Part shown: piece after piece, positions 4,501-55,248 of the stretch
Numbering within the stretch: the stretch's first letter is position 1
Layout: every line of letters begins with the position of its first letter
Assembly (NCBI RefSeq): GCF_058153355.1
Contig: NZ_CM177019.1
Reading direction: 5' to 3' (one strand)
DNA: 64,000 nucleotides
The notes under the pieces: generated by a model
What the model was told of the DNA's origin: nothing
The model's database searches: none
What the model saw: the letters and a program-made list of their open reading frames with translations, nothing else
Position numbers and translations under genes: made by a program

Positions 4501-7500
4501 TGGTGTTGATGCTAATCGCTGGCGCGGTGAGGTTAACGGTGACGGTTCGGCTGGCGTCGTCGCTGTTGCCCGCCCGATCGCTGACGCTGGCGGTGATGGT
4601 CTGTGCGCCGCTACTGAGTGCCGCAACATCCGCTGCTGGAACGCCAACGCTCCAGTTGCCGGAGGTATCCAGCGTCGTGGTATACGTTTTGCCATTGAGC
4701 ACAACGCTCACCACATCGCCCGCTTCCCCGCCCGTGCTGGTACCGGAGATCACCAGCGCCTGTGCGTGTTCGGCGTCGTTAATGATGTCATCGCCTGCCA
4801 CGGTGTTAATGGTGAGAACCGGCGCGGTGGTGTCTACCGCCAGATTATGGCTGGCGCTGCCGGGATTGCCCGCTTTGTCGTTGACCGTGGCGCTGACGGT
4901 GTAATTGCTTGCGGTGAGCGCGACCAGGGCTGAAGTGGGAACGCTGACGCTCCAGCTACCGTCCTCCTGTACATTACCGGTGTAAGTTGCGCCGTTAAGG
5001 GTGACGGTGACCGTCTGCCCGGTTTCGGCGGTGCTGGTGCCGCTGATGGTGAGCGGGTTTCCCGCCTCCGTGGCGTTAAGAATATCGTCGCTGGCGATGA
5101 TGTTAATGGTGAGCGTCGGTGCGCTGGCATCAACGCTATACGCATGAGTTGCCGACGCGTTGTTGCCGCTCGCGCTGCTGACACTGGCCTGCACGTTCGC
5201 CGCGCCGTCTGGCAGGCTTGCCAAATCTGCCGCTGGAACGTTCACGCTCCAGCTACCGTTGGCGGCGACGCTTGCGGTGTAGGTTTTGCCGCCAAAAGTG
5301 ACGGTTACGGTTTGCCCGCTTTCAATCCCGCTGGTGCTGCCAGAAAGGGTCAGGTCGGTGCCTTTTTCAGCGGCGTTAATTACGTCATCGCTGGCAACGG
5401 TGTTGATGCTGATTGCCACAGCCGTTAAATCGACGGTGAACGGATGGCTGACGCTGACCGGGTTTCCGGCGCTGCTCTGTCCTGTCACGTCAACGGTTAA
5501 CGGCCCCGCTGGCCAGGCGCTGACGTTTACTGCCGGAATACCGACGCTCCAGCTCCCGTCTGCCTGTACCGTGGCAGAATAAGCCACACTGTTGATGGAA
5601 ACCGTCAGCACAGCACCTGCATTCAGGCCACTACTGCCACCAGTGATCACCAGTGCCTGACCATGCTCGATGCTGTTGACGATATCATCGCCCGCCACGG
5701 TATCCACGCGCAGCCCCGGCAGGTTGGCATCAATGGTGATATCCCGCGTGCCGCTACCGGTGTTGCCATTCGCGTTGGTGACCGAGGCGGTAATGGTCAA
5801 ATCACCATTGCCCAACGCCTGGAGATCGGCTGCCGGAACGCTGACGCTCCAGCTTAAGTTGCCCTGTACCGTAGCGGTGTAAGTGTTACCGCCCAGCGTC
5901 ACGGTGACTGTATCGCCAGCGGCGGCGCGGGTCACCACCCCGCTGATGGTTTGATCGGCCCCGGCTTCGGCGGCGTTGATAATATCGTCGTCCGCCACGG
6001 TATTGATGGTGACGCCTGGCAGGCCGCTGTCGACCAGTAAATTCGCCTGGCTGCTGGCGGTGTTGCCTGCCGCACTGGTGGCGCTGGCGCTGACGGTATA
6101 GTTAGCCTGACCTAAGGCCGCCAGATCGCTCACCGGCACGGTTAAGGTCCAGTTGCCTGCTGCGTCGGTGGTAGCGCTGTAGTTATGACCGTTGAGCGTG
6201 ACGGTAACCTGTGCGCCGGTCGCCAGCCCCGTACTGCTACCGCTGATGGTCAACGGCTGGCCTTTTTCATCGGCGTTCAGGACGTTATCGCTGCTGATGG
6301 CGTTAAAGGTAATGGTCGGCAGCCCGGTATTGACCGTCACCTGATGGGTGGCGCTGCCGCTGTTTCCGGCGGCGTCAGTGACGCTGGCGTTAATGGTCAC
6401 CGTGCCGTTTGCCAGTGCCGAAACAACGCTTGCCGGGACGCCGACGCTCCAGTTGCCGCTGGCATCCAGCACCGTGGTGAAGGTATTTGTGCCGATAGTC
6501 ACCGTCACGGTGTTACCGGTTGCCGCACCAGTGGCAGAGCCGCTGATAATCTGCGCCTGGGCGTGTTCCGTCGCGTTGATCACATCATCACCCGCGACAG
6601 TGTTGATGGTGACGACCGGAACGGAAGTATCCACCGTCAGGTTGTGGTTAACCGAGGTCGGGTTTCCGGCCTTGTCGCTCACCGCCGCGCTGACGGTGTA
6701 GTTGCTGGCGGTCAGAGCGCTTAAGTCGGCTGGCGGTACGCTGATACTCCAACTGCCGTCCGTTTGTACCGTGCCAGTATAGTTTGCGCCATTGAGCGTG
6801 ACGGTCACCGTCTGCCCGGCTTCCGCCGTGCTGCTGCCGGTGATGGTCAGCGCAGCTCCCGCTTCGGCGGCGTTAAGAATGTCGTCGCCCGCGATGGTGT
6901 TGATGGTCACCGTTGGCGCGCTGGCATCGACGCTGTAAGCGTGGGTCGTGGTGGCGCTGTTGCCGTTAACATTACTGACGCTGGCCTGCGCGCTGGCATC
7001 ACCATCACGCAGGGCTGCCATATCTGCCGCCGGAACCGTGGTGCTCCACGAACCATTCGCCGCGACGCTTGCGCTATATGTTTTGCCGCCAAAGGTCACA
7101 GTGACCGTTTGTCCGGCTTCGACACCAGAAGTGCTGCCGGAGAGCGTTAACGCCGCGCCTTTTTCGGCGGCGTTAATCACATCATCGGCGGTAATGGCGT
7201 TGATGCTGACAGCCACCGCCGAGAGATCGACAGTCACCGGATGCGTAACGCTGACCGGGTTTCCGGCGGTAGTGCTGCCGCTCGCCGTAATCGTCACCGC
7301 CCCCGCAGGCCAGGCGCTGACATCCACCGCCGGAACGCCGACGCTCCAGGTGCCATCCGCCAGCACTGCCGCAACATAGGTTTGCCCGTTAATGGTCAGC
7401 GTGACATTGCTACCCACCGCCAGCCCAGAGCTGCTGCCGGTAATCACCAGCGCCTGACCGTGCTCGATAATGTTGACCACATCATCGCCCGCCACGGTAT

Positions 7501-22659: not shown

Positions 22660-22805
22660 CATGCCTGCCGGATGCGGCATAAACGCCTTATCCGGCCTAC
22701 GATTCAGGCACAGGGTTGTAGGCCTGATAAGACGCGTAAGCGTCGCATCAGGCAATGGTGCTCGGATGCCGGATGCGGCGTGAACGCCTTATCCGGCATC
22801 CGAGA
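22660..22805. repeat. REP/BIME cluster (three REP units) in the copA-ybaP intergenic region
   Basis: Canonical REP palindromes (gcctgccggatgcggcataaacgccttatccggcctac and variants) in alternating orientation; the ORF-track 85-aa ORF at 22612-22869 is the typical REP translation artefact (RMRHKRLIRP). Confidence 0.8.
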
Positions 22806-22937: not shown

Positions 22938-23732
22938 ATGGATCTGTTGTACCGGGTAAAAACGCTTTGGGCCGCGCTGCGCGGCAATCATTACACCTGG
23001 CCTGCTATCGATATCTCTCTTCCCGACCATCGCCATTTTCATCTGATCGGCAGTATTCATATGGGTAGCCACGATATGGCTCCCCTGCCCACCCGTTTGC
23101 TCAAAAAGCTCAAAAACGCCGATGCGCTGATCGTCGAGGCGGATGTTTCCACCAGCGATACGCCTTTTGCTAATTTGCCTGCCTGCGAGGCGCTGGAAGA
23201 GCGCATTAGCGAGGAGCAATTACAAAATCTGCAACACATAAGCCAGGAGATGGGTATTTCTCCATCGCTCTTTTCTACCCAACCACTATGGCAAATCGCG
23301 ATGGTTCTTCAGGCAACGCAAGCGCAAAAACTGGGGCTGCGGGCAGAATATGGTATCGATTACCAGCTATTGCAGGCGGCGAAGCAACAACATAAACCCG
23401 TGATTGAACTGGAAGGGGCAGAAAACCAGATTGCCATGTTGCTCCAGCTCCCTGACAAAGGACTGGCGCTGCTGGACGATACGCTGACCCACTGGCACAC
23501 CAATGCACGGTTGCTGCAACAAATGATGAGCTGGTGGCTGAATACGCCGCCGCAAAATAATGAAATAACGCTGCCCAATACGTTCAGTCAGTCGCTGTAC
23601 GATGTGCTGATGCATCAGCGAAATCTCGCCTGGCGGGATAAACTGCATGCTATGCCGCCGGGGCGCTATGTGGTCGCGGTCGGAGCTTTACATCTGTATG
23701 GAGAAGGGAATTTGCCGCAGATGTTGCGCTAA
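22938..23732 (+). CDS. ybaP: TraB-family protein YbaP
   Basis: 264-aa ORF matching YbaP by sequence recall and position. Confidence 0.9.
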   Translation: MDLLYRVKTLWAALRGNHYTWPAIDISLPDHRHFHLIGSIHMGSHDMAPLPTRLLKKLKNADALIVEADVSTSDTPFANLPACEALEERISEEQLQNLQHISQEMGISPSLFSTQPLWQIAMVLQATQAQKLGLRAEYGIDYQLLQAAKQQHKPVIELEGAENQIAMLLQLPDKGLALLDDTLTHWHTNARLLQQMMSWWLNTPPQNNEITLPNTFSQSLYDVLMHQRNLAWRDKLHAMPPGRYVVAVGALHLYGEGNLPQMLR

Positions 23733-23814
23733 AAAAATGGCCAATATCGCTATTGGCCCGTCAAAGAGGAATTTCATTTTTTTATTATTATGCCGTCACT
23801 TTAAGCGACGGTGT
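23733..23814 (-). ncRNA. chiX: ChiX (MicM/SroB) Hfq-dependent small RNA
   Basis: Minus-strand sequence ACACCGTCGCTTAAAGTGACGGCATAATAATAAAAAAATGAAATTCCTCTTTGACGGGCCAATAGCGATATTGGCCATTTTTTT matches my recollection of ChiX, including the terminator hairpin (GGCCAATAGCGATATTGGCC) and U-tract. Lies in the ybaP-ybaK intergenic region, antisense to both, as in K-12. Ends are approximate. Confidence 0.8.
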
Positions 23815-23935: not shown

Positions 23936-24415
23936 ATGACACCCGCAGTTAAATTACTCGAAAAAAACAAGATTTCGTTTCAAATCCATACCTACGAGCA
24001 CGATCCGGCTGAAACCAATTTTGGCGATGAAGTCGTCAAAAAATTAGGTTTGAATCCGGATCAGGTCTACAAAACGCTGCTGGTGGCAGTGAACGGTGAT
24101 ATGAAGCACCTTGCCGTGGCCGTTACGCCGGTCGCAGGTCTACTGGATCTTAAAAAAGTAGCAAAAGCGCTGGGTGCCAAGAAAGTTGAGATGGCCGATC
24201 CGATGGTCGCGCAGCGTTCGACGGGATATCTGGTTGGGGGGATTAGCCCACTGGGGCAGAAAAAACGCCTGCCGACGATTATCGACGCCCCCGCGCAAGA
24301 GTTTGCCACTATTTTTGTTTCTGGCGGCAAGCGCGGGCTGGACATCGAACTGGCGGCAAGCGACCTGGCGAAGATCCTCGATGCCAAATTTGCTGATATC
24401 GCTCGTCGCGATTAA
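23936..24415 (+). CDS. ybaK: Cys-tRNA(Pro)/Cys-tRNA(Cys) deacylase YbaK
   Basis: 159-aa ORF, YbaK sequence recall. Confidence 0.95.
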
Positions 24416-24420
24416 GCATT

Positions 24421-24444
24421 GTGCCGGATGCGAACATCCGGCAC
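24421..24444. terminator. Hairpin between the convergent ybaK and ushA genes (likely bidirectional terminator)
   Basis: Inverted repeat gtgccggatg/catccggcac with 4-nt loop, immediately after the ybaK stop and before the ushA stop. Confidence 0.5.
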
Positions 24445-24451
24445 TTTCGGA

Positions 24452-26104
24452 TTACTGCCAGCTCACCTCACCTTTCGGTTCATAGACACTCACATCCAGC
24501 GGCGAGTTTTTCTGGATATACGCTTTCAGCACTTCAGCATCAATAAAGCCGGTATTCACATAGCCCGGTTTGTTATCCAGACGCGGATAGCCATCACCGC
24601 CAGTGGCATTGAAGTTTAATGTCGCCATACGGTAAGTTTTCGCCGGATCGACCGGTTCGCCTTTGATTTTCAGGTCGTTCAGTTTGCCGTCTTTCGCCAC
24701 AAAGCTAACGTTGGCAAATTGCGGATAGGCACCAGAATCAGGCTTCATTTGTGCGACGGCGGTCAGGTAATCAATCACCTCTTTACCGGTCATGTCGGCA
24801 TACACCACCACATTGCCGAATGGCTGCACTTTCAGCACATTTTTATAGCTGATATCACCTGCTTCGATAGAATCACGAATTCCGCCTCCGCTCATCACCG
24901 CAAAGTCGGCACCAGTGCGATCCATTTGTGCTGCCAGAATCAACCGCCCCATATTGGTCTGTACAAAACGCACTTTGCTGCGGTCGCCTTCCAGACGACC
25001 ATTGGTTTCGCCTATTTTCACTTCCAGCTGCGCTTTGCCTTTGTTCTGGAACGGCGATAACAGCGAAATAATTTGCTGGTTTTCGGCGATTTCAGGGGTG
25101 TAAAGCACACGCTCGCTTTTCCCGTCTTCCCAGGTCACTTTCTTCTTCAGGTTTACCGGAATCAACTGGTAGTTGACCATTTTCATTTCGCCGTTGCGAA
25201 ACTCAAAGTCGGCCCGACCAACGTACTTGCCCCACTCATGCGCCTGTACAATCCAGATGCCATTTTGTTGATCCGGTTTGCATGGCGTACCAGGAACGTA
25301 ATCGACCTGTTTTTTATTTTCTGCCGCCATACAGACTGGATCTTGCGAGTGACCTCCGACGATCATCGCCAGCGATCCGGCAGGCAGCGCGCGTGCCATC
25401 TCCACATCGCCCGGTGCATTAGAGCCGTGCTCACCGTTGTCGTAATGCCCCATATGGGTCGCCGCGATAATAATGTCTGGCTTTTCTGTCTGTTGCAGCT
25501 CCTGAATCACCAGCTTCGCTTCATCAGCGGGCTTACGAAATTCGATATCAGTGAAGTATTCCGGGTTACCAATTTTGGCTGTGTCATCGGTTGTCAGCCC
25601 AATAACGGCAATTTTCAGATCCTGACGCTTAAACAACGCCCATGGTTTAAACAGGCGCTCACCAGTGCTTTTTTGGTAGATATTGGCGGAAAGCAACGGG
25701 AACTTAGCCCACTTTTCCTGCTGGCGTAATACGGTGAGCGGGTTATCAAATTCATGATTACCGATTGCCATCGCATCATAGCCCACCAGATTCATACCGC
25801 GAAAATCAGGTTCGGCATCCTGTAAGTCGGACTCGGGCACGCCAGTATTAATGTCGCCACCGGAAAGTAGCAGCACGCTACCGCCTTCAGCTGCAACCTC
25901 TTTGCGGATACCATCCACCAGCGTTTTTTGCGCCGCCAGACCATATTCGCCATATTCATTGCGCCAAAAATGCCCATGATGATCATTGGTATGCAGAACT
26001 GTAATTTTGTAGGTTTTATCCTGCTCATAAGCCAGAGCAGTTTCACTCGCCAGTGTAAATGTGGTTAACAGTGCTAACGCCACGCCCCGCTGCAATAATT
26101 TCAT
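24452..26104 (-). CDS. ushA: UDP-sugar hydrolase / 5'-nucleotidase (periplasmic)
   Basis: 550-aa ORF with signal peptide and metallophosphatase motifs (HTNDHHGH, GNHEFD). Confidence 0.96.
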   Translation of the reverse strand: MKLLQRGVALALLTTFTLASETALAYEQDKTYKITVLHTNDHHGHFWRNEYGEYGLAAQKTLVDGIRKEVAAEGGSVLLLSGGDINTGVPESDLQDAEPDFRGMNLVGYDAMAIGNHEFDNPLTVLRQQEKWAKFPLLSANIYQKSTGERLFKPWALFKRQDLKIAVIGLTTDDTAKIGNPEYFTDIEFRKPADEAKLVIQELQQTEKPDIIIAATHMGHYDNGEHGSNAPGDVEMARALPAGSLAMIVGGHSQDPVCMAAENKKQVDYVPGTPCKPDQQNGIWIVQAHEWGKYVGRADFEFRNGEMKMVNYQLIPVNLKKKVTWEDGKSERVLYTPEIAENQQIISLLSPFQNKGKAQLEVKIGETNGRLEGDRSKVRFVQTNMGRLILAAQMDRTGADFAVMSGGGIRDSIEAGDISYKNVLKVQPFGNVVVYADMTGKEVIDYLTAVAQMKPDSGAYPQFANVSFVAKDGKLNDLKIKGEPVDPAKTYRMATLNFNATGGDGYPRLDNKPGYVNTGFIDAEVLKAYIQKNSPLDVSVYEPKGEVSWQ

Positions 26105-26321
26105 ACTTCTCTCCCTGATCAGATTTCAACGTGTTGAAAAATAGTATGACGCGACATCATAGACAAGTCTGCGTCCGGTGAAGATAAATCTGCATCCAGA
26201 TTAGAAATTCTGTATTCAGCGTTGAGACTTCCTTCAGGCGGCGCATACAGGTATGTTAGTCGGGTAATAATCACAAATAAGATCATTCTTTACATCGCAA
26301 CCCTGAAAAAGTGACTTTCCT

Positions 26322-27542
26322 ATGGCAATGAGTGAACAAACCCAGCCAGTGGCTGGCGCTGCTGCGTCAACGACCAAGGCCCGAACATCGTTTGGTATTT
26401 TAGGTGCTATCAGCCTCTCACATCTGCTGAACGACATGATCCAATCGCTGATTCTGGCGATTTATCCCCTGCTTCAGTCAGAATTTTCTCTGACATTTAT
26501 GCAAATTGGCATGATAACCCTCACCTTCCAGCTCGCCTCTTCACTATTGCAACCGGTGGTCGGCTACTGGACGGATAAATATCCGATGCCGTGGTCGTTG
26601 CCGATTAGCATGTGCTTTACCTTGAGCGGTCTGGTGCTGCTGGCGCTGGCGGGCAGTTTTGGCGCAGTTCTGCTGGCGGCGGCGTTGGTCGGCACTGGTT
26701 CGTCGGTCTTTCATCCGGAATCCTCACGCGTGGCCCGAATGGCGTCTGGTGGCCGTCATGGTCTGGCGCAATCTATCTTCCAGGTCGGCGGAAACTTTGG
26801 CAGTTCACTTGGGCCCTTGCTGGCGGCAGTAATTATCGCACCTTATGGCAAAGGTAACGTGGCGTGGTTTGTACTGGCTGCTCTGTTAGCTATCGTGGTG
26901 CTGGCGCAAATCAGCCGTTGGTACTCTGCACAGCACCGAATGAATAAGGGCAAACCCAAAGCAACGATTATCAATCCACTGCCGCGCAACAAAGTGGTAC
27001 TGGCGGTCAGCATTCTGTTAATCCTGATTTTCTCGAAATATTTCTATATGGCGAGCATCAGCAGCTATTACACCTTTTATCTGATGCAAAAATTCGGATT
27101 ATCTATCCAGAATGCCCAGCTTCATCTGTTTGCATTCCTGTTTGCCGTTGCGGCAGGTACGGTGATCGGCGGGCCTGTAGGGGATAAAATTGGACGGAAA
27201 TATGTGATTTGGGGCTCTATCCTCGGCGTTGCGCCGTTTACGCTGATTTTACCCTACGCCACCCTGCACTGGACGGGGGTTTTGACGGTGATTATTGGAT
27301 TTATCCTCGCTTCGGCGTTCTCTGCCATTCTGGTCTACGCTCAGGAGCTACTTCCAGGACGTATCGGTATGGTTTCTGGACTCTTTTTCGGTTTTGCTTT
27401 CGGCATGGGGGGTCTGGGAGCGGCAGTTCTGGGGCTTATCGCCGACCACACCAGCATCGAGTTAGTCTATAAAATCTGTGCTTTCCTGCCACTATTGGGG
27501 ATGTTGACCATATTCCTGCCTGATAACCGGCATAAAGACTGA
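26322..27542 (+). CDS. fsr: Fosmidomycin resistance MFS transporter
   Basis: 406-aa polytopic MFS ORF; sequence recall and position. Confidence 0.92.
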   Translation: MAMSEQTQPVAGAAASTTKARTSFGILGAISLSHLLNDMIQSLILAIYPLLQSEFSLTFMQIGMITLTFQLASSLLQPVVGYWTDKYPMPWSLPISMCFTLSGLVLLALAGSFGAVLLAAALVGTGSSVFHPESSRVARMASGGRHGLAQSIFQVGGNFGSSLGPLLAAVIIAPYGKGNVAWFVLAALLAIVVLAQISRWYSAQHRMNKGKPKATIINPLPRNKVVLAVSILLILIFSKYFYMASISSYYTFYLMQKFGLSIQNAQLHLFAFLFAVAAGTVIGGPVGDKIGRKYVIWGSILGVAPFTLILPYATLHWTGVLTVIIGFILASAFSAILVYAQELLPGRIGMVSGLFFGFAFGMGGLGAAVLGLIADHTSIELVYKICAFLPLLGMLTIFLPDNRHKD

Positions 27543-27779
27543 TTTCATTGCAGCCAAAGGCAAACTTTGGCTGCATCGTTTTACAGTCGCCATAAGCCTT
27601 TCCTCTGTTAAACCGCCTTCTGTTTTCCGATCCGTGCTTTTTTTGCCGCTAATTCCATTTTTCTGCAAAATTCAACAATTATTCATAAACATCATCAATG
27701 AAATTGTCATAAACTATTACCTGTAATTTTGGTTTTCCCGGCCAAAAATGGACAATAACCACCAGGAAAAGGAGACGGA

Positions 27780-29456
27780 ATGCATCACGCCACCCCGCTT
27801 ATCACCACCATTGTTGGCGGCCTTGTGCTCGCCTTTATCCTCGGCATGCTGGCCAATAAACTACGCATTTCTCCTCTGGTGGGATACCTGTTAGCAGGTG
27901 TGCTGGCGGGACCATTCACTCCTGGCTTTGTTGCCGATACCAAGCTCGCGCCGGAACTGGCGGAGCTGGGCGTTATTCTGCTGATGTTCGGCGTCGGTTT
28001 GCACTTTTCGCTGAAGGATTTGATGGCGGTAAAGGCCATCGCCATTCCCGGCGCGATCGCCCAGATAGCCGTGGCGACGCTGCTGGGTATGGCGCTCTCC
28101 GCCGTGCTGGGATGGTCGTTAATGACCGGTATCGTGTTCGGTTTATGTCTTTCCACCGCCAGTACCGTGGTGTTACTACGCGCACTTGAAGAACGGCAAT
28201 TAATAGACAGCCAGCGTGGGCAAATCGCCATCGGTTGGTTGATTGTGGAAGACCTGGTCATGGTTCTGACGCTGGTATTGCTGCCCGCAGTAGCAGGAAT
28301 GATGGAACAGGGTGATGTGGGCTTTGCGACGCTGGCCGTTGATATGGGGATCACCATCGGCAAGGTGATCGCATTTATTGCCATTATGATGCTGGTAGGT
28401 CGCCGTCTGGTGCCGTGGATTATGGCACGCAGCGCGGCAACCGGTTCCCGCGAGCTATTTACCCTGTCGGTGCTGACGCTAGCGTTAGGGATTGCTTTTG
28501 GCGCGGTGGAACTGTTTGACGTCTCCTTTGCGCTGGGCGCGTTCTTCGCCGGGATGGTACTGAACGAGTCTGAACTGAGTCACCGTGCTGCCCACGATAC
28601 GCTGCCATTGCGCGACGCGTTTGCGGTGCTGTTTTTTGTCTCCGTCGGAATGCTGTTTGATCCGTTAATTCTGATTCAGCAACCACTGGCGGTGCTAGCG
28701 ACGCTGGCGATTATTCTGTTTGGTAAGTCATTAGCCGCGTTTTTCCTGGTGCGACTGTTTGGTCACTCTCAACGTACGGCATTAACTATCGCCGCCAGCC
28801 TGGCGCAAATTGGTGAGTTCGCTTTTATCCTGGCGGGGCTGGGGATGGCGCTGGATCTGTTGCCGCAGGCCGGACAAAACCTGGTGCTGGCAGGGGCAAT
28901 CCTGTCGATTATGCTTAACCCGGTGCTGTTCGCGCTGCTGGAGAAATATCTGGCGAAGACCGAAACGCTGGAAGAGCAGACGCTGGAAGAAGCTATCGAA
29001 GAGGAGAAGCAGATTCCGGTGGATATCTGCAACCATGCGCTGCTGGTAGGTTATGGTCGTGTGGGCAGCCTGCTGGGGGAGAAGTTGCTCGCCTCTGATA
29101 TTCCTTTAGTGGTGATTGAGACGTCACGTACTCGCGTCGATGAACTGCGCGAGCGCGGGGTCCGCGCAGTATTGGGCAATGCGGCGAACGAAGAAATTAT
29201 GCAACTGGCGCATCTGGAATGTGCAAAATGGCTGATCCTGACGATTCCCAATGGTTATGAAGCGGGCGAGATTGTGGCGTCTGCCCGCGCGAAAAACCCG
29301 GATATTGAGATTATCGCCCGCGCCCATTATGACGACGAGGTAGCATATATTACCGAGCGCGGGGCGAATCAGGTGGTAATGGGCGAGCGTGAAATCGCCC
29401 GTACTATGCTGGAACTGCTGGAAACGCCACCGGCGGGTGAAGTGGTGACGGGGTAA
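27780..29456 (+). CDS. ybaL: CPA2-family cation/proton antiporter with C-terminal TrkA-N (Rossmann) domain
   Basis: 558-aa ORF; membrane domain followed by GYGRVG NAD-binding motif. Confidence 0.92.
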   Translation: MHHATPLITTIVGGLVLAFILGMLANKLRISPLVGYLLAGVLAGPFTPGFVADTKLAPELAELGVILLMFGVGLHFSLKDLMAVKAIAIPGAIAQIAVATLLGMALSAVLGWSLMTGIVFGLCLSTASTVVLLRALEERQLIDSQRGQIAIGWLIVEDLVMVLTLVLLPAVAGMMEQGDVGFATLAVDMGITIGKVIAFIAIMMLVGRRLVPWIMARSAATGSRELFTLSVLTLALGIAFGAVELFDVSFALGAFFAGMVLNESELSHRAAHDTLPLRDAFAVLFFVSVGMLFDPLILIQQPLAVLATLAIILFGKSLAAFFLVRLFGHSQRTALTIAASLAQIGEFAFILAGLGMALDLLPQAGQNLVLAGAILSIMLNPVLFALLEKYLAKTETLEEQTLEEAIEEEKQIPVDICNHALLVGYGRVGSLLGEKLLASDIPLVVIETSRTRVDELRERGVRAVLGNAANEEIMQLAHLECAKWLILTIPNGYEAGEIVASARAKNPDIEIIARAHYDDEVAYITERGANQVVMGEREIARTMLELLETPPAGEVVTG

Positions 29457-29467
29457 GACATTGATTC

Positions 29468-29650
29468 CATTGCCGGATGCGATGCTGACGCATCTTATCC
29501 GGCCTACAGGTGCCACCTTCCGAAGGTCGGATAAGGCGTTTATGTCGCATCCGACTGTCATTGCCGGATGCGATGTTGACACATCTTATCCAGCATACAG
29601 GTGCCATCTTTCGTAGGTCGGATAAGGCGTTTATGCCGCATCCGACTGTC
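29468..29650. repeat. BIME: tandem duplication of a roughly 90-bp unit containing paired REP elements
   Basis: cattgccggatgcgatg(c/t)tgac(g/a)catcttatcc...gtcggataaggcgtttatg(t/c)cgcatccgactgtc occurs twice in direct tandem between ybaL and gsk. Confidence 0.8.
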
Positions 29651-29664
29651 ATCAGTCCGATAAC

Positions 29665-30969
29665 TTAACGATCCCAGTAAGACTCTTCCAGACTGTCTTC
29701 ACGCTCCGGTAAGCCGCGCGTTAAACGAGGTGAATGCTGGTTCAGTACCTGATAGCTCACACGGTTAGCATATTTACACACCTGCGCTAACGATGAATAA
29801 GTCAGCCAGGTGAATTTATGTTTGCTGGAGTTTGGTACGTTGCTACGGTGGTAGCTGTTGGCGGTAATGTCATGCAGCAATGCTGCCAGTGCGCCATCCC
29901 CGGCACCGTTGGTGTTCATGATCTTTTCCGGCCCGCCCATGTACGGCGCAATGTGAGAATAGACGCGCAGCGGGTTCTGGCAATCTTTATGGCGCATGGC
30001 GCGGCTAAACTCATACTGGTTAAATTCCGCTATAGCGCCCGGCAGCAGCGGATGCTGGGTTTTACGTTTCGCTTCGTCTTCAGTAAAGCCCGCCATATAC
30101 AAGCCGATTGGCCCGGCGGTGCACAGCACCAGATCAACCCAGTCCAGCGCCTTGTCAGATGCCAACAACGGATCGCTTTCTCCGGTCAACGCTTCGGCCT
30201 CATCTTCGTTCATCGCAAGGATAGAGACGTGATCTTTGAGGAATTGCTGCCACCACTGCGGATTCTCGGCAATGACAAACTTGGTGCCCAGCGTCAGCAC
30301 CACCGGTACGTTATATTTCGTCGCGTACTCAATGGCTTTCATGGTTGCTTCCGGCATGGGTTCACCCGGCTTACAACGCACCAGATAAGAAGTGAGAACC
30401 AGTGCCGAGGCTCCGGCAATCACATCTTCCGGAATACTTTCAGCCCGCAGCTGGTTCATGTGGCCAGGGCTGATAGCAAAGGTACGTTCCCCGGACTCGC
30501 CAATCAGGGTAAAGCAGCGACCAATCGGGCCGTCCACGCCTTGCAGATAGTTAAGATCGGTACGGCTGGAGGTGTTACACAGGTAACGATAGGCATAGCT
30601 GCCAATTTCAATATTGCTGCACATGACGCCCAGCAGCACCGAACGGTCGTCCGCGAGCACCGAGTAGTTGTGCATGGTGTTACCAATGGTGCCACCCGCA
30701 AACTGGTGAGTAATCAGGTTTTTCTGTTTCAGCTCCTGATAAAGTGCTTCGGCAACATCATCCTCAATCACCAGTGAATGCCCGGCGCTTAATCCATAAC
30801 GCTCAATGAACTCATCATCCACTTTCGCTTCAATATCGACCAGCGTTTGATCGATACCCACTACCCAGGCAGCGCTGGTTTCGTTTTCTGGCTGGAATTG
30901 CTGAAGCAGCGGATCGCGTGCGTTTACGGGAAAATAATGTTTGGATTTACGTTTGCCGGGAAATTTCAT
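29665..30969 (-). CDS. gsk: Inosine-guanosine kinase
   Basis: 434-aa ORF, PfkB-family sequence; Gsk recall. Confidence 0.96.
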   Translation of the reverse strand: MKFPGKRKSKHYFPVNARDPLLQQFQPENETSAAWVVGIDQTLVDIEAKVDDEFIERYGLSAGHSLVIEDDVAEALYQELKQKNLITHQFAGGTIGNTMHNYSVLADDRSVLLGVMCSNIEIGSYAYRYLCNTSSRTDLNYLQGVDGPIGRCFTLIGESGERTFAISPGHMNQLRAESIPEDVIAGASALVLTSYLVRCKPGEPMPEATMKAIEYATKYNVPVVLTLGTKFVIAENPQWWQQFLKDHVSILAMNEDEAEALTGESDPLLASDKALDWVDLVLCTAGPIGLYMAGFTEDEAKRKTQHPLLPGAIAEFNQYEFSRAMRHKDCQNPLRVYSHIAPYMGGPEKIMNTNGAGDGALAALLHDITANSYHRSNVPNSSKHKFTWLTYSSLAQVCKYANRVSYQVLNQHSPRLTRGLPEREDSLEESYWDR

Positions 30970-31120
30970 GGTTGTTTTTACGGGTGGTTAACTGAGCGGC
31001 GAATGTTAACACAATCAGACGGGAGCGCGCGAGACGCAGCCAGTTTCAATATCAGCAGGCGGGATCGCATTTTCATGGCAGTGGTTCCTTACAATGACGT
31101 AATTTGAAAGGAGTTTTTGC

Positions 31121-32080
31121 ATGAAGCCGGAAAACAAATTACCCGTTCTGGACCTTATTTCTGCTGAAATGAAGACCGTTGTGAATACTCTTCAGCCGGA
31201 TTTACCGCCCTGGCCCGCAACGGGAACGATTGCTGAGCAACGACAGTATTACACACTTGAGCGCCGATTCTGGAATGCGGGCGCTCCAGAAATGGCAACC
31301 AGCGCTTACATGGTTCCCACACCTTATGGTCAGGTCGAGACTCGCCTCTACTCACCCAAAAGTCACAGCCCAGCGACACTATTTTATCTGCATGGTGGTG
31401 GTTTTATTCTCGGCAATCTTGATACCCACGATCGGATTATGCGACTGCTGGCAAATTACACCCAATGTACAGTGATTGGTATTGCTTACACTCTTTCGCC
31501 GGAAGCACGTTTTCCGCAGGCAATAGAGGAAATTGTGGCTGCCTGTTGCCACTTCCACCAGCAGGCAGAGGATTATCAAATCAATATGTCACGCATTGGT
31601 TTTGCTGGTGATTCTGCAGGCGCAATGCTGGCGCTCGCCGGTGCGTTGTGGTTACGTGATAAACAGATAGATTGCGGTGAAGTTGCGGGCGTTTTGCTGT
31701 GGTATGGGCTTTACGGATTACGGGATTCCGTGACTCGTCGTCTGTTGGGCGGTGTTTGGGATGGCTTAACGCAAGAGGATTTACAGATGTATGAAGAGGC
31801 GTATTTAAGCAACGACGCTGACCGCGAGTCGCCGTATTACTGCCTGTTTAATAATGATCTCACTCGTGAGGTTCCGCCCTGTTTTATTGCCGGAGCGGAG
31901 TTCGATCCGCTGCTGGATGACAGCCGTCTGCTTTACCAGACGTTAGCGGCGCATCAGCAGCCCTGTGAGTTCAAACTCTACCCAGGCACGCTGCACGCCT
32001 TTTTGCATTATTCACGGATGATGAAAGCCGCCGACGAGGCTCTTCGCGACGGCGCTCAGTTCTTTACCGCTCAGCTTTAG
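31121..32080 (+). CDS. aes: Acetyl esterase
   Basis: 319-aa ORF with HGGG oxyanion motif and GDSAG nucleophile elbow; 3' end overlaps the convergent hemH by 4 nt. Confidence 0.95.
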
Positions 32081-33039
32081 CGATACGCGGCAACAAGATT
32101 AGCCATCATTTCGATATGTTCCGGTGTGGCATTAAGCGCCGGAATATATTCGTATTTTTTCCCGCCCGCACCGAGGAAGACCTCACGGTTTTGCTCGGCA
32201 ATCTCTTCCAGCGTCTCCAGACAATCTGCAGCAAAGCCCGGGCACATCACCTGAATATGACCTACGCCTTTTTCTCCGAGCATTTTCAGTGTTTCGTCGG
32301 TATAAGGCATCAACCAGGGTTCCCGACCAAAGCGTGACTGATAGGTCATCATCACTTTTTCCGGTGCCATCCCCAGCGCGGAAGCCAGTTCGCGAGTCGT
32401 TGTGCGACAACGTTGCGGGTAATCATCGCCTTCATCGGCATAACGCTGGGGAATACCGTGATAAGAGAGCAGCACTAGATCAGGTTCGCCATGTTTAGCA
32501 AAAGAAGCACGTACGCTGTTCGCCAGTGCATTAATGTAATCGTGATTATCGGCGTAATCACGAATAAACGATATCCCCGGAACGCTACGTTTGCGCGCCA
32601 GAATGCGTGCCAGCTCATCCCATACCGCACCGACCGTTGAACAGGAGTATTGCGGATAAAGCGGCAGCACCACGATATGATCTACATGTTCTGCCAGTAG
32701 TTCATCTACGGCGCTTTCCAGTGATGGCGAGCCGTAGCTCATTCCCAGCGCTACGGGCGTCTCCGGTAAACGTTGTGCCAGCGCCTGCTGTTGCTGGCGG
32801 CTGTAAACCATCAGTGGCGAGCCACCTTCCATCCAGACAGAGGCATACAACTTCGCCACACGCGGCGAGCGCAGCGGCAAAATCACGCCGCGCAGCAACG
32901 GCCACCACAACAGCCGTGAGGTATCAACCACGCGTCTGTCGCTTAAAAATTGTTTCAGGTAGCGTTTTACCGCTTCAGGAGTGGGGGCATCGGGTGTACC
33001 CAGGTTTGCCAGCAGAATACCGGTTTTAGTTTGACGCAT
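32077..33039 (-). CDS. hemH: Ferrochelatase
   Basis: 320-aa ORF, ferrochelatase sequence recall. Confidence 0.96.
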
Positions 33040-33190
33040 TACCGCCTCTTATCGATTCAACTTGTTGATAATTGTAGCGGAAAAGTGAAGAAGAAGAACT
33101 AATTGCTGTGAGAGGCTAAATCAGAAAATATCATAAGGCGCTGTATCTTTAATGAGAGATTTTTGCCAGCGCCAGATTTTCCAGAAGGTG

Positions 33191-33694
33191 CTATTGCGTC
33201 ACGGGGGTACCATTGACGTTAAGTGTATATGGCCAGATTAAATTTGATGCCCTACCACACATTGGTGTAGGCGTTCTGAAAGTGGTCCTGATCGTATACT
33301 CTCCGGCTTTCTGGGGAGTGCCTGAAAATTTTACCCACGCCTCTTCGGTCAGAGAATCTGTATTCTTTTTCAGAAACTCTGCATTTTCTTCCGTGATGGG
33401 GAAAAGTTCACCCTCTTTGTTTTTTGCCCACAATGACATTTGTATGCCTTCAGGCAAAGTTTCAGGCTTTTCGGGACGAATGTCCGGGGCTTCATACCAA
33501 CTTATGGTCGTTTTTACGACGGTTTCGTAATACTGGCCCACCTGAGCATCAGGAAGCTCTTGTTTTTCATTAACTTTATCATTACTTGTAACATGAGAAA
33601 GAGCTACACCGACGTAACACATAGGCATTTCACACCCTGTCAGCAATGACGCAAGCAATAAAATACCTGTTGGTAATAAACAGCGATAACGCAT
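33191..33694 (-). CDS. Small predicted lipoprotein with one putative Ig-like (He_PIG-like) domain; not part of K-12 adk-hemH spacing as recalled
   Basis: Preferred start is the internal Met at 33694 (MRYRCLLPTGILLLASLLTGC, lipobox LTGC, AAGGA about 8 nt upstream); the longer ORF-track start at 33763 lies inside a REP element. Mature part contains LPEGI...SGTPQKAGEYTIRTTF. Visibly AT-richer than flanking genes (not computed). Confidence 0.6.
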   Translation of the reverse strand: MRYRCLLPTGILLLASLLTGCEMPMCYVGVALSHVTSNDKVNEKQELPDAQVGQYYETVVKTTISWYEAPDIRPEKPETLPEGIQMSLWAKNKEGELFPITEENAEFLKKNTDSLTEEAWVKFSGTPQKAGEYTIRTTFRTPTPMCGRASNLIWPYTLNVNGTPVTQ

Positions 33695-33760
33695 ATTTAC
33701 GTCCTTGTTAAAGGCCGGAAGCGTATCCAGCCTCCAGTTGCTGGCAAAGTGCGCTTTGTT

Positions 33761-33820
33761 CATGCCGGATGCGGCGCGAACGCCTTATCCGGCCTACAAA
33801 CTGACAAGTTTGTAGGCCTG
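33761..33820. repeat. REP element pair between the lipoprotein gene and adk
   Basis: catgccggatgcggcgcgaacgccttatccggcctacaaactgacaagtttgtaggcctg. Confidence 0.7.
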
Positions 33821-33875
33821 TTCCCCTCACCCTCTCCCCGAAGGAGCGAAGGGACTGTCCGTGCGCGCTTTCGAA

Positions 33876-34592
<717 letters not shown>

Positions 34593-37671: not shown

Positions 37672-39603
37672 TCAAATGGGGCGGATACTTTCTTCATCCA
37701 GCTCCGCATCGAAGAATCGACGCAGGGTCTGAATATTATTATCCGCAATAATGGACTCGCGCGCCTGCGCAAGTTTTTCTTCGTATATCGCCTGACGCCA
37801 TTCCAGCGGCGTGCGCACCGCGGGATTATCATCTTCAACGATAGTCAGTTCAACCGTTGAACCTTTTAACGTGCTCAACGCTTCAGCCAGTTTTTGCTGT
37901 GCACCGCGGTTGTTTAAATGCCGCTGAGAGGAGCGCAAATGCAGACATACTGCGTTGTCGCTCTCCTCTTTCCAGGCATTTAACGCCACCTGTTCAACCA
38001 GTTTTGGTAGCGAAAGTTGGCTCACCTGTGCCGCCCAAGGATCGCGCTCAATGGCTTCTGCCGCCAGCTTTGCCGCCAGTTCCGGCGTTTTTTCATGTTC
38101 CAGCGCTTTTTTTAGCGCCTTCGGCGTGGCGACCACTTCTTTTTGCTGCATCACTGGAGTGGTAGCCTTCCAGCGATACGCTTCTTTTTTGGCTGGTGCT
38201 TTTTCCAGCGCCGATGGCACCGGACGCGCCTGAACGCGATCGGTGACCGAAGCCAGTCTTTCCAGCGCAGCGTTATTCACCGGCCGCGCGCGGGTAGCGG
38301 CTGCCGGTTCACTCTTTTTTGCTTTGGTTGCTCCCTGCACGCGCTGCAACTGCTGGCGCGCCGCCAGCACCTGGCTGGTGGTTTCCGGGAGCGGTACAGT
38401 CGGTGCCTGCTGCGGCGCTGATTGCGGTTGCGGCGGCACCTGGGTTGGCGTCATTACAGCCGTTGGCGCGACGGGCGCAAAGGACTGGCGTGGCACTTCT
38501 GGCTCAGGCAGCGGCATACGCGGATGGAACGCCAGCGCGCGAAGCAGCGTCATCTCAACACCCATACGGCGGTCTGGCGCATACGGTAATTCTTTGCGAC
38601 CAATCAACAGCGTCTGGTAGTAAAGCTGAATATCCGTCGGCGGTATGGTGCGCGCCAGTTCACGCATCCGCAGCTCGATAGCGGCCATGTCGTTGCCCAG
38701 CGCAGCAGGGGAAAGTTGCACCATTGCAATGCGGTGCAACAGGCCGAGCATTTCTACCAGCAACGCTTCCCACTCAATACCACGAGCGGCGGCTTCATTA
38801 ATCAGCGACATTACACGCTCGCCGTTGGCTTCAACCATCGCTTCAACCAGCGACAGCGCCTGATCGTCGTCAAGCGTACCCAGCATCGCACTGACCGCCT
38901 GGGTTGAAACCTGGCCGTCACCGCTGGCAATTGCCTGGTCGGTTAAACTTAGGGCATCTCGCAAGCTGCCTTCAGCGGCGCGCGCCAGCAGTTGCAGCGC
39001 CCGCGGCTCGTGAGCGATATGTTCTTCGTTGAGGATGTGCTCAAGCTGATGGCGAATTTGCTCGACATCCAGCGCCTTGAGATGAAATTGCAGGCAGCGT
39101 GACAAAATCGTCACCGGCAATTTCTGCGGATCGGTCGTCGCCAGCAGAAACTTGACGTGCTCCGGCGGTTCTTCAAGGGTTTTTAACAGTGCGTTAAAGC
39201 TGTGGCGCGACAGCATATGCACTTCGTCGATCAGATAAACTTTAAAACGACCACGCGCTGGCGCGTACTGGACGTTATCCAGCAGGTCGCGGGTATCTTC
39301 GACTTTGGTGCGCGAGGCGGCGTCGATTTCAATCAGATCGACAAAGCGCCCCTGCTCAATTTCACGACAGTTATCGCACACGCCGCACGGCGTCGCGGTA
39401 ATGCCGGTTTCGCAGTTTAGCCCCTTCGCCAGCAGTCGGGCGATAGAGGTTTTTCCGACGCCACGGGTGCCGGAAAAAAGATAAGCATGATGAATACGCC
39501 CTAACGACAAGCCGTTCGCCAGTGCGGTCAGCACATGTTCCTGGCCGACGACGTCAGCAAAGGTTTGTGGGCGCCATTTTCGGGCTAAGACCTGATAACT
39601 CAT
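37672..39603 (-). CDS. dnaX: DNA polymerase III subunits tau (full length) and gamma (frameshift product)
   Basis: 643-aa ORF with AAA+ motifs (GTRGVGKTS) and a C-terminal tau-specific region. Confidence 0.97.
   Translation of the reverse strand: MSYQVLARKWRPQTFADVVGQEHVLTALANGLSLGRIHHAYLFSGTRGVGKTSIARLLAKGLNCETGITATPCGVCDNCREIEQGRFVDLIEIDAASRTKVEDTRDLLDNVQYAPARGRFKVYLIDEVHMLSRHSFNALLKTLEEPPEHVKFLLATTDPQKLPVTILSRCLQFHLKALDVEQIRHQLEHILNEEHIAHEPRALQLLARAAEGSLRDALSLTDQAIASGDGQVSTQAVSAMLGTLDDDQALSLVEAMVEANGERVMSLINEAAARGIEWEALLVEMLGLLHRIAMVQLSPAALGNDMAAIELRMRELARTIPPTDIQLYYQTLLIGRKELPYAPDRRMGVEMTLLRALAFHPRMPLPEPEVPRQSFAPVAPTAVMTPTQVPPQPQSAPQQAPTVPLPETTSQVLAARQQLQRVQGATKAKKSEPAAATRARPVNNAALERLASVTDRVQARPVPSALEKAPAKKEAYRWKATTPVMQQKEVVATPKALKKALEHEKTPELAAKLAAEAIERDPWAAQVSQLSLPKLVEQVALNAWKEESDNAVCLHLRSSQRHLNNRGAQQKLAEALSTLKGSTVELTIVEDDNPAVRTPLEWRQAIYEEKLAQARESIIADNNIQTLRRFFDAELDEESIRPI
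38309..38320 (-). other. dnaX: dnaX programmed -1 frameshift site (A_AAA_AAG) with immediate -1-frame UGA, producing gamma
   Basis: Plus-strand ctttttt at 38314-38320 is the complement of AAAAAAG at codons AKK of ...GATKAKKSEPAA (0-frame verified by hand). The -1 frame reads AAA AAA GAG UGA, with the stop at plus 38309-38311. A GC-rich potential stem follows on the mRNA (plus 38281-38307). Confidence 0.85.
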
Positions 39604-55134: not shown

Positions 55135-55248
55135 GGGTGGGGGCCCTGCCAGCTACATCCCGGCACACGCGTCATCTGCCTTGGCTGCTTCCTTCCGGAC
55201 CTGACCTGGTAAACAGAGTAGCGTTGCGGGAGAACCAACAGAGCCCCC
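55135..55248 (-). ncRNA. ffs: 4.5S RNA (signal recognition particle RNA)
   Basis: Minus strand reads GGGGGCTCTGTTGGTTCTCCCGCAACGCTACTCTGTTTACCAGGTCAGGTCCGGAAGGAAGCAGCCAAGGCAGATGACGCGTGTGCCGGGATGTAGCTGGCAGGGCCCCCACCC, 114 nt, matching the E. coli 4.5S RNA as recalled. Confidence 0.95.

Follow-up and report, generated by a model that had tools for sequence, protein, structure and literature searches.

REP and BIME arrays, together with polymorphism in their copy number, have been on record since the 1980s-1990s. Classes of BIME have been defined, and BIME copy number at one locus varies between strains (PMC3333891). In this scheme, BIME-1 (RIB/RIP) is a single-copy z1-L-y unit with a long L linker that contains an IHF site, and BIME-2 is composed of y and z2 REPs with a short (S) head-to-head linker and occurs as tandem copies in variable number (PMC3333891). 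TnpAREP (RAYT), which requires the GTAG tetranucleotide, assembles tandem BIMEs in vitro (PMC3333891). The Rfam model of naRNA4 represents a Y-l-Z2 unit (PMC4550694). In the mRNA context, REPs have been summarised as stabilisers (PMC12306157), and a REP located <16 nt past a stop codon is reported to stall ribosomes and lower translation (Liang, Rudd and Deutscher 2015, as relayed in PMC12306157).

The array analysed here is an ordinary, already known kind of element, a member of this long-known class of E. coli intergenic repeats. It lies in the window, by which we mean the whole 64,000-nucleotide stretch of DNA that was analysed, between ybaL (27780-29456, + strand) and gsk (29665-30969, − strand). 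The ybaL ORF encodes a YbaL family putative K+ efflux transporter of 558 aa, which matched the NCBIfam equivalog NF007950 with 1100.9 bits and is annotated as ybaL in matching E. coli records, and the gsk ORF encodes an inosine/guanosine kinase of 434 aa, which matched NF011655 with 912.5 bits. The two genes are convergent and are separated by a 208-bp spacer, most of which is filled by the two-copy array; the array is extragenic, bounded at one end by the ybaL stop codon (TAA, 29454-29456) and at the other by that of gsk (29665-29667). The gsk sequence of the window is 96.5% identical to that of K-12 and 99.5% identical to that of a two-unit carrier. When window positions 24000-34000 were compared with the complete E. 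coli genomes of RefSeq (5426), no identical sequence was found, and the closest 10-kb matches reached 98.3-98.8% identity; the window may come from a lineage outside this set. The MG1655 RefSeq annotation lists no named REP feature at the ybaL-gsk locus, and, judging by titles and abstracts, no literature specific to the ybaL-gsk REPs is evident. Elsewhere in the window, Rfam matches were found, all on the − strand, to the sroB sRNA (23731-23814), the dnaX frameshift element (38275-38339) and the small SRP RNA (55144-55240).

Tandem Repeats Finder reported a single array at 29468-29652 with a period of 91, 2.0 copies, 91% matches, no indels and a score of 314. Unit 1 (29468-29558, 91 nt) comprises REP a1, a head-to-head linker and REP b1, and unit 2 (29559-29649, 91 nt) is identical to it at 83 of 91 positions, the eight differences being located at unit positions 18, 23, 34, 37, 49, 53, 56 and 78. 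The repeat continues for three bases past unit 2 (CAT, 29650-29652). By chance, 83/91 matches would arise with a probability of ~1e-40, or ~3e-33 when corrected for all positions and periods, and this value, together with the occurrence of the repeat in other species, rules out a chance repeat. Nor is the duplication an assembly artefact, since 15 complete E. coli genomes, each assembled independently, carry the two-unit allele. The initial annotation had placed here, between convergent ybaL and gsk, a unit of ~90 bp with two REP palindromes, repeated in direct tandem with few substitutions. The location holds, as judged from the ORFs and NCBIfam matches, the unit measures 91 bp and carries its two REPs in opposite orientation, and the substitutions number eight; Tandem Repeats Finder and the repeat search agree on both description and coordinates. 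The tandem duplication is confirmed.

The four REPs alternate in orientation, in the order a1(−), 14 nt, b1(+), 7 nt, a2(−), 14 nt, b2(+). The REP a palindrome, GCCGGATGCGATGCTGACGCATCTTATCCGGC (32 nt), is followed by CTAC and has its GTAG-first orientation on the − strand; the REP b palindrome, GTCGGATAAGGCGTTTATGYCGCATCCGAC (30 nt), is preceded by GTAG, or by GAAG in unit 1. REP a1 (29472-29507, − strand) consists of a Z2-like 32-nt stem-loop (29472-29503) and CTAC (29504-29507), which constitutes an intact GTAG on the − strand. Its stem begins 15 nt past the ybaL stop codon, its hairpin has a folding energy of −21.5/−22.0 kcal/mol, and it matches, at 27/32 positions and with no indels, the canonical Z2 REP located at 22722-22753 of the window. 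Head-to-head linker 1, AGGTGCCACCTTCC (29508-29521, 14 nt), has no IHF core motif and leads into REP b1 (29522-29555, + strand), in which GAAG, a degenerate GTAG, precedes a Y-like 30-nt stem-loop (29526-29555; −15.0/−12.0 kcal/mol) that shares 27/30 positions with the Y REP at 22667-22696 of the window. The 7-nt tail-to-tail linker TGTCATT (29556-29562) joins the two units, and this junction, CCGAC(T/A)GTCATTGCCGG, is identical in all multi-unit alleles, those of other Escherichia included. In unit 2, the stem-loop of REP a2 (29563-29598, − strand; Z2-like stem-loop at 29563-29594) is followed by ATAC, so that the − strand reads GTAT, again a degenerate GTAG; the stem contains a compensatory C-G to U-A change at 29576/29581 and one mismatch (C·A) at 29592. 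Head-to-head linker 2, AGGTGCCATCTTTC (29599-29612, 14 nt), is followed by REP b2 (29613-29646, + strand), which has an intact GTAG (29613-29616) and a Y-like 30-nt stem-loop (29617-29646; −17.7/−17.6 kcal/mol) that is 28/30 identical to the in-window Y REP and is separated from the gsk stop codon by 18 nt. Thus, GTAG is intact in the outer a1 and b2 and altered by one base in b1 and a2, that is, in two of the four REPs. These losses, with the stem mismatch of a2, suggest relaxed constraint on the inner REPs.

On either strand, each of the four REPs (30-32 nt, in the 30-40-nt range of such imperfect palindromes) forms a hairpin with a folding energy between −12 and −22 kcal/mol, its stem interrupted by an internal loop or a mismatch. 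The spacer as a whole is far more stable than shuffled sequences (z = −5.6 for the + strand, −5.2 for the − strand). The minimum-energy folds also permit long-range pairing of oppositely oriented REPs. In an alignment of 12 units, drawn from the window, the E. coli carriers and other Escherichia, 98.3% of stem cells were paired, and one compensatory pair was found, the C-G to U-A change at unit positions 18/23 in second copies. Variable columns made up 7/48 of the stems, whereas outside the stems they made up 18/43 (Fisher p = 0.005). The palindromes are therefore kept up while the linkers drift. Either selection or REP-to-REP gene conversion could be sufficient to produce this pattern.

The array belongs to a dispersed family: in E. 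coli genomes, the median number of sites that its 182 nt match is at least 36. A single unit between loiP and speB in K-12, for instance, is 85% identical. Further REPs are present in the window at 22667-22797, 33764 and 41707. The first of these stretches (22667-22797) is a canonical BIME with the order Y, inverted Z2, Y, and reaches the naRNA4 gathering score on both strands, with 84.6 and 62.3 bits. The Y-type REP at 33764-33797 directly adjoins a 190-aa ORF (33191-33763, − strand) that has no Pfam match and is located in the hemH-adk spacer (33040-33875), which measures ~836 bp here and 131 bp in strain Z0117EC0005; at the corresponding hemH-adk position, strain 2017-02-2CC carries a hypothetical gene.

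Across the 5426 complete E. coli genomes, the ybaL-gsk spacer takes several distinct forms. The two-unit allele of the window, with its 208-bp spacer, occurs in 15 genomes, in which it is 98.4-99.1% identical, and a one-unit allele with a spacer of 116 bp occurs in one, strain AR_0077. An allele with REP a only (spacer 82-83 bp) is present in at most 582 genomes (~10%), a count that may include the 16 two- and one-unit genomes. Most genomes (4654, ~86%) carry instead an unrelated REP pair of the K-12 type in a spacer of 129-132 bp. Since ~86% of genomes have the unrelated pair and ~10% have only REP a, strains can do without the second unit, and even without REP b. An insertion allele of 970-991 bp with two unannotated small ORFs is found in strain 2017-02-2CC and in Escherichia sp. 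E1V33; these ORFs are 150 and 94 aa long, and their sole Pfam match is a sub-threshold one to DUF7336. In strain 2017-02-2CC (positions 5458-6427 of the extracted stretch), a second, degenerate copy of the 3′ end of ybaL and one BIME unit come after the insert. Given such large inserts, the REP-containing ybaL-gsk spacer looks like a hotspot of insertion or replacement.

One scan of species-representative genomes, with spacer lengths taken as extracted, extended this series. E. albertii has one REP in a 78-bp spacer, 'E. coli' E69 one unit (117 bp), 'E. coli' SCPM-O-B-8794 two units (207 bp) and E. whittamii three units (299 bp). Citrobacter species, with spacers of 45-119 bp, mostly have one unrelated palindrome, none being recognised in one species and two being found in two. 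The initial annotation had proposed that such units can vary in copy number between strains, and at this very locus they do: one REP and one, two or three units occur among E. coli and other Escherichia, and most E. coli carry another REP pair. In E. whittamii a private substitution is common to all three copies, which suggests, from the sequences compared, either a separate amplification or concerted evolution in that species. A distance matrix of the copies, used to seek copy-by-copy orthology between species and so to date the duplication, showed no clear pattern outside the E. coli carriers.

Within the E. coli carriers, the signal is consistent with a single event. Among the carriers compared, first copies differ from one another by two bases and second copies by 0-1, whereas first and second copies differ by 7-10; thus, the carriers appear to have inherited one old duplication rather than to have undergone repeated recent ones. 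For the change in copy number, slippage or unequal exchange is the simplest explanation. One-unit alleles are flanked on both sides by CATT(G), and a one-unit allele of this kind may have been duplicated by slippage or unequal exchange at the microhomology. A TnpAREP (RAYT)-type strand transfer would be an alternative cause. Once two units were present, unequal homologous exchange over the 91-bp homology would be able to shift the copy number among one, two and three. The CATT(G) direct repeat brackets one-unit and multi-unit alleles and is located in the window at 29459-29472 and 29647-29652. It could represent the microhomology of the first duplication, or a target-site duplication from the original insertion of the REP pair.

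We read the array as a four-REP BIME that derives from duplication of a one-unit allele, the hairpins of which would serve as exonuclease barriers in the 3′ UTRs, with the extra unit close to neutral; for this joint reading we estimate a probability of roughly 85%. A terminator scan revealed no hairpin-plus-U-tract terminator in 29457-29664 on either strand. Because neither gene has such a terminator, transcripts from both sides presumably run into the array, where the REP hairpins would block 3′-to-5′ exonucleases on both convergent mRNAs and thereby set and stabilise the mRNA 3′ ends. The most likely role of the array, on this analysis, is thus that of exonuclease-blocking 3′-UTR hairpins for the ybaL and gsk mRNAs. 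The initial annotation had suggested, with reserve, that such units can serve as terminators or mRNA stabilisers, which is general knowledge on REPs. The same scan bears on whether both genes share the array as an intrinsic (Rho-independent) terminator that works in the two directions, as might be expected of strong GC-rich hairpins that are present on both strands and lie exactly between the convergent stop codons in a spacer with no other terminator candidate. However, a T/U run follows none of the four hairpins on either strand, and with no terminator pattern in the spacer, a stabiliser or exonuclease-barrier role is favoured over classical intrinsic termination, which we consider improbable here. 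With respect to the <16-nt limit for ribosome stalling, the distance from the ybaL stop codon to REP a1 is 15 nt, a borderline value that depends on the counting convention, and the 18 nt between the gsk stop codon and REP b2 fall outside the limit. The one-REP, one-unit and two-unit alleles all carry REP a1, and its proximity to the stop codon is therefore unaffected by the duplication. The second unit is missing in 99.7% of complete E. coli genomes, and the duplication is therefore probably near neutral.

Neutrality might extend to the entire array, which would then be a purely selfish or neutral repeat, a locally amplified REPIN-like doublet with no effect on ybaL/gsk expression. The restriction of the two-unit allele to just 15/5426 genomes, the quite different spacers of most strains, the decay of the inner REPs (loss of GTAG, stem mismatch) and the ability of TnpAREP to build tandem BIMEs in vitro (PMC3333891) are all in keeping with this explanation. 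Yet across species conservation is significantly higher in the REP stems than in the linkers, with one compensated change in a stem, a pattern for which gene conversion could also account, and at least one palindrome directly follows ybaL in the Escherichia and Citrobacter alleles examined that have no large insertion, apart from one Citrobacter with none recognised. We therefore regard a wholly selfish or neutral array as unlikely, though a serious contender. Other explanations centre on the two-hairpin module that spans the unit junction (REP b1, TGTCATT and REP a2; 29525-29595, + strand) and resembles Rfam naRNA4. The junction could encode an naRNA4-type nucleoid-associated RNA, or the array could be a strong gyrase site that relieves supercoiling. 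Indeed, the module is the best match to RF02564 (57.4 bits, E = 5e-9), gyrase cleavage is enriched in BIME-2 elements with a preference for y-type REPs (PMC6379681), and convergent genes are where positive supercoils accumulate. Against this, the match falls short of the 59.5-bit gathering threshold, its tail-to-tail linker lacks 6 nt relative to the RF02564 model, and gyrase binds only a subset of BIME-2 elements (PMC6379681); the canonical in-window unit, by comparison, scores 84.6. A scan of the window at the Rfam gathering threshold did not list 29525-29595 but listed 22721-22798 at 84.6 bits. Membership of an Rfam family was rejected for the array, its sole match, to naRNA4, being under threshold. 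An naRNA4-type RNA or strong gyrase site is accordingly very improbable. We place just as little weight on a related proposal of a non-neutral duplication, in which the junction module, new with the duplication and located in the ybaL 3′ UTR, would bind HU or recruit gyrase, and copy number would tune local DNA topology or the expression balance of ybaL and gsk; the tail-to-tail two-hairpin module is missing from the one-unit allele. Finally, the program-made ORF list includes three ORFs in the repeat (29404-29652, − strand, 82 aa; 29461-29616, + strand, 51 aa; 29510-29668, + strand, 52 aa), any of which might encode a small protein, but they consist of REP sequence and overlap one another and ybaL. 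In the one-REP, one-unit and K-12-type alleles they are broken or missing, and we consider a coding role scarcely conceivable.

The main import of these findings is correct annotation, as the locus behaves as expected for its class. The ybaL-gsk spacer also provides a clean natural allelic series, from one REP through one, two and three units to an unrelated pair and a two-ORF insertion, on which the effects of REP number on mRNA stability, on the formation of 3′ ends and on supercoiling between convergent genes could be tested. A further modest use is that of the rare two-unit allele as a simple lineage marker.

Among known systems, the REP pair at the K-12 ybaL-gsk locus shares with the window allele its intergenic position, its REP palindromes and the convergent genes. 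It differs in its REPs and their arrangement, the 132-bp spacer containing an inverted Z2-type REP and one of the GCCAGATG type, and it is alignable with the window allele in one REP core only. The likeness to REPIN/RAYT (TnpAREP) elements resides in the inverted REP doublet, the GTAG tetranucleotides and the conserved internal mismatch, which together constitute the type of substrate that TnpAREP cleaves and recombines (PMC3333891); only two of the four REPs here retain GTAG. With REP325/naRNA4 (RF02564), the array shares a tandemly repeated two-hairpin Y-linker-Z2 module on one strand, but its linker is 6 nt shorter, its match scores 57.4 bits, and it has two units as opposed to six. A BIME-1 or IHF element was ruled out by the 14-nt linker, the tandem repetition and the lack of an IHF core, a motif scan having found WATCAANNNNTTR on neither strand of 29457-29664.

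The closest relatives are the BIME-2 elements of Gilson, Bachellier and Hofnung, with which the array has in common the alternation of Y-type REPs with REPs of Z2 length, a short head-to-head linker with no IHF site, tandem REP pairs and strain-variable copy number. Indeed, its REPs alternate and are joined by linkers, as in any BIME, and its 14-nt head-to-head linker and 1-3 copies at the orthologous locus are those of BIME-2. The identities given above place REP b (27-28/30) with the in-window Y REP and REP a (27/32) with the in-window Z2 REP, but REP a has a Y-like G/C foot pair, GCCGGATG...CCGGC. Because this diagnostic foot position, which separates Y from Z REPs, is G and not T (Z being T...A), the array cannot be assigned cleanly to BIME-2 proper. 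The REP b foot is GTCGG...CCGAC, the tail-to-tail linker is only 7 nt, and the copies are 9% diverged, so that, strictly, units of this kind are 'atypical BIMEs'. The element is therefore a BIME of four alternating REPs in two tandem 91-bp units, BIME-2-like or an 'atypical BIME' in the nomenclature of Bachellier and Gilson.
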